64,000 nt of DNA from Candidatus Thalassarchaeum betae. Its GTDB lineage: Archaea; Thermoplasmatota; Poseidoniia; Poseidoniales; Thalassarchaeaceae. Position 1 is the stretch's first letter. Every line of letters begins with the position of its first letter. Shown here piece by piece: positions 26,178-27,836 of the stretch. The position numbers and the translations under genes were made by a program. Below the pieces are notes generated by a model. The model had not been told where the DNA came from. It did no database searches and worked only from the letters and a program-made list of their open reading frames with translations. The stretch covers positions 1 to 64,000 of the forward strand of contig PSPG01000006.1 of assembly GCA_003193925.1 (NCBI GenBank). Reading direction: 5' to 3'.

Positions 26178-26204
26178 TGGTACGAGTGCCGGGATTTGAA
26201 CCCG
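26178..26204. repeat. 27-bp direct repeat (att site): duplicate of the tRNA-Gly(GCC) 3' end
   Basis: TGGTACGAGTGCCGGGATTTGAACCCG is identical to 27810-27836. Confidence 0.95.
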
Positions 26205-26339
26205 CATCGAGGCGGTCCCGTCGAGGCCATCCTGCCGGGCTACGCCGGCGCCATCCGTGACGCCCTCGAGGCCGGTGACCTCGACGCCGTGCGCCGGATG
26301 CTCGACCTCCTCGCAGCCCTGGGGGGTGAGCCGGCTTGA
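26178..26339 (+). CDS. C-terminal fragment of the att-split gene (WYECRDLNPHRGGPVEAILPGYAGAIRDALEAGDLDAVRRMLDLLAALGGEPA*)
   Basis: Open frame through the att repeat with strong GNC codon bias; same frame as the fragment starting at 27627; has no start codon of its own at the 5' end. Confidence 0.6.
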   Translation, partial: WYECRDLNPHRGGPVEAILPGYAGAIRDALEAGDLDAVRRMLDLLAALGGEPA

Positions 26340-26341
26340 CC

Positions 26342-26530
26342 TCAGTCCCTGACCATCGACTGGTTCAACCTACCATCTGGACCTATGACGACGTCGCCGA
26401 CCGGTCGCCATTCAAGTCTGATGAGGTCGTTGACCAGAGCGTCCAACACGGCCACCAGCTGCACGCTGTCCTCTTCCACCCCAAGGCCCCCTTTTTCGCG
26501 GGTTCCCGCAGTCACCGTCTTGTACTCCAT
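26342..26530 (-). CDS. 62-aa protein, DUF1737-like
   Basis: MEYKTV...LDALVNDLIRLEWRPVGDVV...NQSMVR pattern; stop is convergent with the split-gene stop, 2 bp apart. Confidence 0.55.
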   Translation of the reverse strand: MEYKTVTAGTREKGGLGVEEDSVQLVAVLDALVNDLIRLEWRPVGDVVIGPDGRLNQSMVRD

Positions 26531-26568
26531 CAAGCCGCACACTCTCTGTCGGTTGAAGGAGGCATCGC

Positions 26569-27147
26569 ATGAGCGAGGCTCTGGCAGCCTGGAACGGCTA
26601 CGTGTTCGACCGCCCACGATCGCCTCGCTGGGAGGGCGTCTATCCCGGCCCGGAGATGGCGCTGCGCCGGCTGCTGTGGGCTCGCCTGCTGTCGCAGGTC
26701 GACAAGCGACCCAGCAATCTGGCCGCTTATCCAGCCCTACACCAGGGAACGGCTCCAGGAGACCAGCACCATGAGCGCCAGGACTGCCAGACAACCCCCC
26801 AGGAGTCGCCCCAACGGGACGCTGTCCAAGCGGCTCGGTGGTTCGACATCGGTTCGGCCCGTCACAGGCGGCACCCCCATCATGCCACGCGGAGGCGGCC
26901 ACGGTCCTTCAGACCCACCCCTTACCTTGACCCTCATGAGAGAGCAACTGAGAACGCATCACCGAGGACCGAGAGGGGTACTCCAAATCCCGGCGTTCGC
27001 ACCCGAGCCAGGAGGTGGTCGGGTGAATCAGGTGGGAGTGAGGGATTAGCAAGTGCAACAACCGACAACCGACCGATGTCTATCGAGTCTATCGCGCACC
27101 AGCCCCGGGTCCCTCAGCCCCCAAGCCCCCGGGGCAACCGGCGATAG
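26569..27147 (+). CDS. Orphan protein of the integrated element (192 aa)
   Basis: AAGGAGG SD site upstream; stop codon overlaps the SD of the next ORF; C-terminal half looks low-complexity/disordered. Confidence 0.45.
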   Translation: MSEALAAWNGYVFDRPRSPRWEGVYPGPEMALRRLLWARLLSQVDKRPSNLAAYPALHQGTAPGDQHHERQDCQTTPQESPQRDAVQAARWFDIGSARHRRHPHHATRRRPRSFRPTPYLDPHERATENASPRTERGTPNPGVRTRARRWSGESGGSEGLASATTDNRPMSIESIAHQPRVPQPPSPRGNRR

Positions 27148-27160
27148 GAGGGAGGTTGGT

Positions 27161-27502
27161 ATGAGGATAGCGGCAGTCCCCCCGATCCGCTACCTGCGGA
27201 CGGACTCGACGGGGACCGCGATCGTCGGCCTGCCACCGCTGCGCATCACCCAGGAGTGCGCCTCGTGCCACGCCTGGCTCGATTTGTCCGCGTACCGCAC
27301 CCTGGCGGCTGCGTGCCGCTCGTGCGAGGCTGTTGAGGTGGCGGGCCGCATACAACCGACCGCCAGCCGACAAGCAGGAGGCGGCCCTGCCGATACGAGC
27401 CGGTCAAGGGCAGTTCAAAAGCCCTCCTCCGGGCGTCCCATCGCGTGCGCGGGTGAACCCCCCACTCAACCAGCCGTCAACCCGGCGTCAAAGGCACCTT
27501 AA
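27161..27502 (+). CDS. Putative zinc-finger protein of the integrated element (113 aa)
   Basis: GGAGGGAGG SD site; CASC-x15-CRSC. Confidence 0.6.
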   Translation: MRIAAVPPIRYLRTDSTGTAIVGLPPLRITQECASCHAWLDLSAYRTLAAACRSCEAVEVAGRIQPTASRQAGGGPADTSRSRAVQKPSSGRPIACAGEPPTQPAVNPASKAP

Positions 27503-27626
27503 GGCGAAAAACGGGACAAACTCAGCGATTTCGAGGACCGTGGCGCGAAGTCCATAGGCCCACACTGTCCCCGGTCCGACTCGACACCGCCAGCCGCGGT
27601 CATCCGAAAGCAGGAGAACGACGAAC

Positions 27627-27836
27627 ATGACCCCGACTGATGACTCACACGACCTCACGCCGCCGATCACCTACGCCGCCTGCGAGTCGAGCGTGGGCGA
27701 TGTCCTGGTAGCCAACTTCCACCCGGTCGGCAGCGACGGACGCAGCCGCCCGCTCTGGTTGAATCGGGGTGCCCTGCACCGCGGCGCGGCCACTGCCGTG
27801 GCAGGCGGTTGGTACGAGTGCCGGGATTTGAACCCG
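27627..27836 (+). CDS. N-terminal fragment of the att-split gene (runs into the tRNA antisense; stop at 27863 in the integrated state)
   Basis: AGGAG SD site upstream; MTPTDDSHDL...AVAGG-WYECRDLNP reads through the att repeat. Confidence 0.6.

Follow-up and report, generated by a model that had tools for sequence, protein, structure and literature searches.

The window, by which we mean the whole 64,000-nt stretch at the start of contig PSPG01000006.1 of Candidatus Thalassarchaeum betae, carries a short insert at the 3' end of its tRNA-Gly(GCC) gene. This insert belongs to a family of 439-1,632-bp units that are flanked by attachment (att) sites and occupy the 3' ends of tRNA-Gly(GCC) and tRNA-Pro(TGG) genes in Thalassarchaeaceae (marine group IIb archaea). 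The insertion is precise, the insert encodes no recognizable recombinase, a related unit is present or absent at the same site within one species, and near-identical element DNA occurs in different species. We put the probability at roughly 55% that the insert is a rearranged 1.6-kb member of a group of very small, non-autonomous integrative cassettes that are moved in trans.

Precise insertion at the tRNA-Gly(GCC) gene

The 27-nt sequence TGGTACGAGTGCCGGGATTTGAACCCG occurs in two perfect copies, at 26178-26204 and 27810-27836 (start-to-start spacing 1632), which enclose 1,605 bp. The second copy is the own 3' end, from T-arm to CCA, of the tRNA-Gly(GCC) gene on the minus strand (27810-27884; found by ARAGORN, and by the Rfam tRNA model with 62.7 bits), which is intact. 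The first copy abuts the TAA of a gene for a 1015-aa protein (23130-26177). An earlier reading made from the letters alone, here called the sequence-only reading, had described this perfect duplication of the tRNA 3' end, and both copies are where it placed them. Throughout the 1.48-Mb genome, just one of the 43 tRNA genes, this tRNA-Gly(GCC), has a second copy of its 3' end (last 22 nt, at most one mismatch), which excludes a chance duplication. The G+C content of the insert is slightly higher than that of its flanks (0.65-0.68 versus 0.58-0.63).

The sequence-only reading had also predicted that removal of the element would set the CCA of the tRNA directly against the TAA, and had proposed comparing the locus across relatives. 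Comparison of 24500-29500 with 41 related genomes recovered exactly this empty attB in the same-genus genomes G019 and G007, which are the two closest (82-85% identity): the flanks overlap by exactly 27 bp, and the stop codon lies against the CCA end. In more distant members of the genus (G014, G017, G009, G002, G012, and G008), the 1015-aa gene and tRNA-Gly lie about 11 kb apart in opposite relative orientation, so that only one subclade has them side by side. In a further species of the genus (G013:C55:26883-27228, equivalent to L073 2883-3229), a second tRNA-Gly att copy lies 319 bp from the tRNA, with the interval masked as N. Four genomes that contain two att strings (G135, G074, G154, and G176) were rejected as candidates, as these represent the same tRNA on two overlapping contig ends and no insertion.

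A misassembly at the tRNA repeat, which the sequence-only reading had raised, would mean that the assembler threaded a free circle sharing 27 bp with the tRNA into the chromosome. The window does come from a metagenome-assembled genome, and contigs of some runs break at att. Yet contigs of independent sequencing runs bridge both junctions with 0 differences (left, X10 record 3; right, X10 record 4 and X9 record 30), the left junction is also present on the Joint Genome Institute (JGI) contigs L075 and L077, and L079 and L080 carry both junctions of a related 1,096-bp unit. Because the bridging contigs stem from independent runs and from JGI assemblies, a misassembly is excluded, and the probability that we leave to it is negligible.

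A family of att-flanked two-gene units

A DNA search of 201 family genomes recovered only pieces of the insert. One block, 26306-26610, comprises a gene for a 62-aa protein and an adjoining intergenic region and is 76-91% identical in 11 other genomes from five genera. The 38-bp intergenic region is nearly invariant over these 11 genomes. The other fragments are 26737-26885, found in contig C20 of the same genome, and 27018-27195, found in G019:C28.

Scanning JGI metagenomes gave 133 relatives of the 62-aa gene, of which 80 loci were kept. A tRNA gene lies within 3 kb upstream in 12 of the 80 (nine tRNA-Pro(TGG), two tRNA-Gly(GCC), and a tRNA-Arg that is oriented the other way). The tRNA 3' end is found again downstream of the 62-aa gene in 10 of the 82 loci with enough flank, as a direct repeat of 31 bp in Pro-type and 27 bp in Gly-type units. 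The units measure 439 bp (L081, L104, and L110), 504 bp (L098), 505 bp (L102), 534 bp (L107), 1005 bp (L082), 1096 bp (L079 and L080), 1451 bp (L084), and 1632 bp (the window element, the largest). Their polarity is uniform: the tRNA 3' end is followed by a short open reading frame (ORF) that reads into the tRNA, the 38-bp intergenic region, the 62-aa gene, a tail on the opposite strand, and the displaced tRNA end. The two genes fill the 439-bp unit entirely, leaving no spare DNA. Two further Pro-type copies (G014:C68 and G009:C92) have decayed repeats, and tandem or attP-type junctions occur in L082 and L085. Gly- and Pro-type units have homologous arms on either side of a swapped att core, and the T-loop and its neighboring bases are the same in tRNA-Gly(GCC) and tRNA-Pro(TGG).

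Occupied and empty sites point to recent movement

Two assemblies, L079 and L080, carry the 1,096-bp unit at the same tRNA-Gly site as the window. The flanks of L079 are 99.3% (left) and 99.1% (right) identical over 1,500 bp each to those of G019, whose site is empty, which on this flank identity is a presence/absence polymorphism within one species. The window and L079 differ far more in their host flanks (81.5% and 80.6% identity) than in the element itself, where the tail is 99.3%, the intergenic region 100%, the 62-aa gene 95.2%, and the segment 26732-27235, which is inverted in L079, 97.5% identical; the N-terminal part of the ORF beside the tRNA (N-part) is 67.5% identical. A core of 95-100% identity between flanks of 81% requires a recent horizontal gain at the same site, and by this comparison the element is far younger than the divergence of its hosts, in both of which it sits at the same att.

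A contig of the window's own species (L075, flank 99.2% identical) carries a mosaic variant of the window element with 95.2% identity. Since it differs by replaced patches (26686-26768 and 27469-27668) and by a different right end beyond 27678, the units recombine with each other. Within this right end (L075 1-210, minus strand), an ORF that starts like the one at 27627 goes over into different sequence and is still open where the contig ends, and no relative of greater length was found for this open-ended ORF.

A gene that spans att

We permuted each unit to a circle in silico and read the ORF across att. The tRNA-side ORF passes in frame through att and ends at the stop codon of the tail in six of nine units, some of which are close kin: the window element (61 + 9 + 44 codons), L079, L082, L102, L104, and L110. 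The frame is shifted in L084, L098, and L107, the latter two also having mismatches in att. This att-spanning gene, encoding 53-115 aa, is whole only in the circular or tandem permutation. Contiguous natural versions occur at array junctions (L082:1709-1930 and L085:640-837) and as the predicted proteins P0121 and P0122, whose source may be either circles or arrays. L085 contains a tandem array (347-1660) in which a complete att and an att-spanning ORF separate two copies of the 62-aa gene, all within 1.7 kb; the upstream flank of the first copy is of a non-tRNA type. The tail, which has 10 columns that are invariant between Pro- and Gly-type units, is under constraint at the protein level, and its predicted structure is a helical hairpin in which the att-encoded stretch forms a loop. 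Both att types have a GDLH motif, seen in DNA and peptide, about 40 bp from att.

The 62-aa protein has relatives in 192 clusters at 90% identity, all of them unnamed. A profile search of 1.84 billion representatives gave just 14 matches (representatives at 50% identity), so the family is narrow, and the titles of the named records that contain the gene refer to Thalassarchaeaceae, Thalassarchaeum, Poseidoniales, or marine group II, in agreement with the Poseidoniales host supposed in the sequence-only reading. Nine 62-aa sequences share 34 invariant columns. The predicted structure is beta-alpha-beta-beta (predicted local distance difference test score, pLDDT, 83), for which Foldseek found nothing in the PDB at E 0.001 or better. 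A likeness to DUF1737 (PF08410) is a lead only: the language-model score is 0.93, the family is annotated on 11% of the matched cluster's members, and the 62-aa protein has no Pfam match to it at E up to 1. The conserved 300-bp block was also considered as an RNA, which is ruled out as the block is a protein gene; Rfam searches of 25500-28500 at E up to 1 gave the tRNA plus one sub-threshold small RNA match only.

Most copies of the 62-aa gene lie away from tRNAs, as high-GC islands of about 400 bp in lower-GC DNA (L028/L042 around 9970-10300; L030, L031, L034, and L035). The flanks of these islands resemble a Pro-type att in decay and a remnant 14 codons long of the N-part. Both genes remain open in the tRNA-less islands (e.g., P0143 on 38 contigs), a hint that the gene pair is retained by selection after movement stops.

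That att lies inside one of only two genes, as it does in SSV-type (Sulfolobus spindle-shaped virus) elements, and that the GDLH motif accompanies both att types would suit a self-sufficient mini-element, whose small proteins perform or direct recombination at att themselves, for example by recruiting to the T-arm the single XerA-like recombinase of the host. The host indeed has one tyrosine recombinase, and most family genomes have a single match. We nevertheless regard this as highly doubtful: proteins of 62 and 53-115 aa, with a small beta-alpha-beta-beta fold and a helical hairpin, have no family or solved structural match, neither contains a domain able to cut DNA nor has a Pfam match, and Xer enzymes work at dif and are not known to work at tRNA genes. 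A long shot of the same kind is that a 439-bp two-gene circle is a complete integrative element, both of whose proteins direct recombination at the T-arm of tRNA-Gly or tRNA-Pro by a new mechanism or through capture of the sole tyrosine recombinase of the host. If true, no smaller site-specific integrative element would be known, and an archaeal group that is among the most abundant in the ocean would have a system for shuttling genes.

No recombinase in the units, and a model of movement in trans

As the sequence-only reading had noticed, the window element has no recognizable integrase, Rep, or capsid gene, and none of its ORFs matches Pfam, PHROG, NCBIfam, or PADLOC. The tyrosine recombinase family PF00589 has a single match in the host genome (92% complete), on contig C4 (XerA-like gene, C4:23551-24054), the serine recombinase family PF00239 has none, and the SSV-type integrase PF16795 is above cut-off in none of 226 family genomes. 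A tblastn search with ORFs from 36 integrase loci as queries found no integrase in the window or in 133 loci that contain the 62-aa gene or some other fragment of the element; one query was a neighboring non-integrase ORF and others were chosen by position only, so the sensitivity is limited. None of the units yielded a recombinase, and neither did their flanks of up to 10 kb.

Some family genomes do have a second tyrosine recombinase (Pfam score 23-89 bits) with a tRNA gene about 130-290 bp away, namely tRNA-Ala(TGC) in L163, L171, L177, and L184, tRNA-Gln in L162, tRNA-Glu in L166, and tRNA-Ser in L180. Such loci are likely integrative elements. Because the family has such tRNA-adjacent tyrosine integrases, donors that act in trans are plausible. 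Charybdis elements of 4.6 kb that carry an integrase and insert beside Poseidoniales tRNA genes (10.1101/2025.08.03.668216) are further candidate donors.

We propose the following model. The basic unit would be 439 bp, with two genes arranged head-to-head and tail-to-tail, one for the 62-aa protein and one for a 53-115-aa protein with a helical-hairpin C-terminus. An attP of 27-31 bp, identical to the 3' end of tRNA-Gly(GCC) or tRNA-Pro(TGG), would lie inside the reading frame of the second gene. Recombination of attP with the tRNA gene would insert the unit, rebuild the tRNA, and split the att-spanning gene, leaving the N-part beside the tRNA and the tail beside the displaced tRNA end. Further rounds of insertion and unit-to-unit recombination would then give rise to tandem arrays and to mosaics such as the window copy, with its three N-terminal cassettes in series. 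The recombinase would be a T-arm-specific tyrosine recombinase provided in trans by a helper element or by the host. We infer that there is a circular intermediate, what kind of recombinase acts and where it comes from, and any continued mobility of the window copy.

The duplicated block runs from the 5' strand of the T-stem to the CCA. Williams (2002) reportedly described this position as a usual crossover sublocation of tyrosine integrases in tRNA genes. Non-autonomous cassettes served by a T-arm-specific recombinase would fit because the block starts at the T-stem and the T-loop region is common to both tRNAs.

The units could instead spread without an integrase, with host homologous recombination inserting attL, unit, and tRNA together over arms of 27-31 bp and the tRNA body, so that no recombinase or circle is needed after the first event. 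This would agree with the failure to find a recombinase and with the tRNA being 100% identical between the window and L079 (48/48 plus the 27 bp), and homologous arms around a swapped att core in Gly- and Pro-type units come about easily when homology drives the targeting. It leaves the first insertion unexplained, however, as well as the fact that circular or tandem permutation alone keeps an ORF in frame over att; an arm of 27 bp is very short, and the duplicated block begins at the position at which tyrosine integrases reportedly cut. We therefore hold integrase-free spread to be improbable.

The window copy as a rearranged mosaic

The features of the window copy are given in Table 1. We used the codon-position G+C pattern of the host, about 62/42/84, as a coding signature. 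It is limited to the tail, the 62-aa gene, the first ~60 codons at 26569, the first ~70 at 27161, and the 61 codons at 27627-27809.

Table 1. Features of the window element and its immediate surroundings.
Feature	Position	Strand	Description
Host gene, 1015 aa	23130-26177	+	C-terminal membrane anchor; TAA abuts attL; stop abuts the tRNA in empty-site relatives
attL	26178-26204	-	Displaced 27-bp tRNA-Gly(GCC) 3' end, T-arm to CCA
Tail	26205-26339	+	Last 44 codons and stop of the att-spanning ORF; G+C at codon positions 1/2/3 is 89/53/80
Module A, 62-aa gene	26342-26530	-	Beta-alpha-beta-beta model; family marker
Divergent intergenic region, 38 bp	26531-26568	.	Contains the Shine-Dalgarno (SD) site for the ATG at 26569
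Orphaned N-terminal cassette (start of ORF D)	26569-26700	+	ORF continues to 27147 without coding signature
Segment inverted in L079	26732-27235	.	97.5% identical to the 1,096-bp element L079
ORF E	27161-27502	+	113 aa, CxxC...CxxC; coding-like only in the first ~70 codons
ORF F, current N-terminal part	27627-27809	+	61 codons; in frame through attR; in frame with the tail after circular permutation
attR	27810-27836	-	27 bp within the functional tRNA
tRNA-Gly(GCC)	27810-27884	-	Intact

The strong SD sites noticed in the sequence-only reading are there, being of the GGAGG type before the ATGs at 26569, 27161, and 27627. The tail is kept in Pro-type units. The homologue of the ORF D start in minimal Pro-type units reads directly into att (P0158), and the segment 27018-27195, which holds the SD site and start of ORF E, recurs at 97-98% identity in L082, L084, L085, and G019:C28. 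The first eight codons of ORF E head the att-spanning ORF in L082. Neither ORF E nor ORF F has a credible relative in the 226 family genomes (all matches have E values of 1e-4 or worse). An inverted att-like stretch at 26984-27003 (17/20) and a Pro-att-like one near 26707 were rejected as candidates, with a score of 28 against a shuffled null with a mean of 25 and a maximum of 32.

The tail ORF shares its strand with the 1015-aa host gene and has a TTG start at 26196, 19 nt past the host stop, so read-through transcription could express the tail when the unit is integrated. On contig C20 of the same genome, a 149-bp high-GC fragment (1338-1486; L033 1160-1760) is 91% identical to window positions 26737-26885. 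This fragment closely follows an aquaporin-like gene, has three copies of a motif like GGGTTTAGA..CACGAG around it, and contains neither the 62-aa gene nor a tRNA.

Several observations weigh against a mobile cassette. Only ~40% of the 1,605 bp of the insert has a coding signature and the remainder has none, two of the three N-terminal cassettes are orphaned, and the copy is a mosaic with an inverted segment, so the sequence-only description of an element that "looks intact rather than eroded" does not hold. Because its interior is mostly without coding signature and contains orphaned gene starts, the window copy may be dead; it is a rearranged mosaic derivative that may be inert, and comparison with L075 suggests that its present form could be a deletion derivative of a longer variant. 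The in-frame continuity over att in two independent att types is modest evidence, with a rough chance estimate of about 0.05-0.1. As many as 72 of the 82 assessable loci have no tRNA-derived repeat of at least 16 nt, and several of those inspected have decayed att-like flanks, so much of the family may be fossil. For the window's own species, neither a circle junction nor an empty site was seen in the contigs of four runs, which drop rare forms. The polymorphism could also stem from loss when the 27-bp repeats recombine, without excision machinery. The searches gave no helper and no recombinase with this att; neither the exact Gly and Pro att strings nor either of the two genes is present in IMG/VR or in the phage and plasmid collections, where no relative turned up.

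Within the contigs of these runs, no joint skips exactly 26205-27836. The one long skip, which joins 25828 to 27810, is off the att borders; it comes from a single X14 contig whose shorter side measures 36 nt. Junctions of the attP type were seen only within arrays and in P0121 and P0122. Contigs that start or stop at att (X14 record 9; X20 records 18 and 22) were not counted, as graph branching may produce them, and a loose end at 26204 in X10 continues into the tRNA-Gly of another organism.

The sequence-only reading had proposed an ultra-minimal element mobilized in trans, for example by a marine group II virus. The units are indeed very small, non-autonomous, and, by comparison, recently mobile; the helper was not found, and no marine group II virus or other viral contig, nor any plasmid, in the collections searched carries the element genes or att.

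The most serious competitor of movement in trans is that the units are inert scars: deletion remnants of larger integrase-bearing elements that kept att and the att-proximal genes, no longer move, and are polymorphic through loss by repeat recombination. The window copy looks the part, with its interior devoid of coding signature, truncated gene starts, and mosaic structure with an inverted segment, and so do the longer and different right end of L075, the 72 loci lacking an intact tRNA-derived repeat, and the element fragments elsewhere (C20:1338-1486 and G019:C28). Scars of this kind would also fit the definition of cis-mobilizable elements (CIMEs; PMC5704250). What makes us consider this unlikely is that no larger parent is present among 80 metagenome and 13 genome loci (flank up to 10 kb), where all att-delimited units are at most 1.63 kb, that the 439-bp unit consists of two complete genes with zero spare DNA, and that a core of 95-100% identity in hosts with 81% flanks needs a recent horizontal gain. 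Non-autonomous cassettes moved in trans remain our preferred explanation.

Significance

Few mobile elements are known from marine group II archaea, which are abundant and uncultured. The units offer a concrete attP/attB pair with which the recombinase or helper of these archaea can be sought, and they represent a class of insertions that integrase-based screens overlook. They also explain why these metagenome-assembled genomes have incomplete tRNA copies, and contigs that break, at tRNA-Pro and tRNA-Gly. Our literature search found no description of such units in Poseidoniales, although one may be in print. Among the descriptions found, the units are well under the size range given for archaeal integrated elements (2.6-140 kb in PMC6563490).

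Comparison with known systems

CIMEs of the integrative and conjugative element (ICE) and integrative and mobilizable element (IME) islands of Streptococcus are described (PMC5704250) as having attL and attR at the 3' end of a target gene, lacking genes for integration and transfer, and forming tandems. Like CIMEs, the window units keep attL and attR and have no integration and transfer genes. CIMEs are bacterial, kilobases long, and derived from decayed ICEs or IMEs, whereas the units have an archaeal host, are as small as 439 bp, and have att in a conserved small ORF. The tandems seen here (L082 and L085) are of units with units only, and no larger relative that could be an autonomous parent was found in 93 loci, IMG/VR, phages, or plasmids.

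Elements with SSV-type ("suicidal") integrases have attP in an ORF that is split into N- and C-terminal parts upon insertion into a tRNA gene (PMC7253208). The units resemble them in that attP lies within an ORF that would be split on integration and is contiguous at L082:1709-1930. Unlike in SSV, the split ORF encodes 53-115 aa and no integrase domain, in line with PF16795 in 0/226 genomes.

Integron cassettes are 0.4-1.6 kb long, contain one or two ORFs and one recombination site, have no recombinase of their own, and form arrays. In contrast to these, no IntI/attI platform lies by the arrays (loci with up to 10 kb flank), the site is a tRNA 3' end (T-arm to CCA) where integron cassettes have an attC hairpin, and the same two genes are in every unit in place of a varied cargo.

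Clade P of Charybdis comprises small marine elements of ~4.6 kb with around 10 genes and a conserved Gp3 structural module that integrate beside Poseidoniales tRNA genes, the integrated ones having an integrase (10.1101/2025.08.03.668216). The units are set apart from these by their size (0.44-1.6 kb), and their genes and att are absent from IMG/VR, the database in which that study found Charybdis elements. The cryptic integrated elements of Thaumarchaeota, found via their integrases, are att-flanked, lie at tRNA genes, contain mostly unknown genes, and span 2.6-140 kb (PMC6563490); the units are 0.44-1.6 kb and have no integrase. Casposons have Cas1, terminal inverted repeats, and a short target-site duplication, whereas the units have no ORF with a family match, no listed inverted repeat, and a 27-31-bp tRNA repeat.

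With a classical tRNA-integrating element the units share tRNA-derived repeats, a regenerated tRNA, and the presence of an empty site, but an integrase of their own was not found. What stands out against all of these is a recurrent, recently mobile, recombinase-less cassette of 0.44-1.6 kb with two tRNA targets and an att within a conserved ORF.

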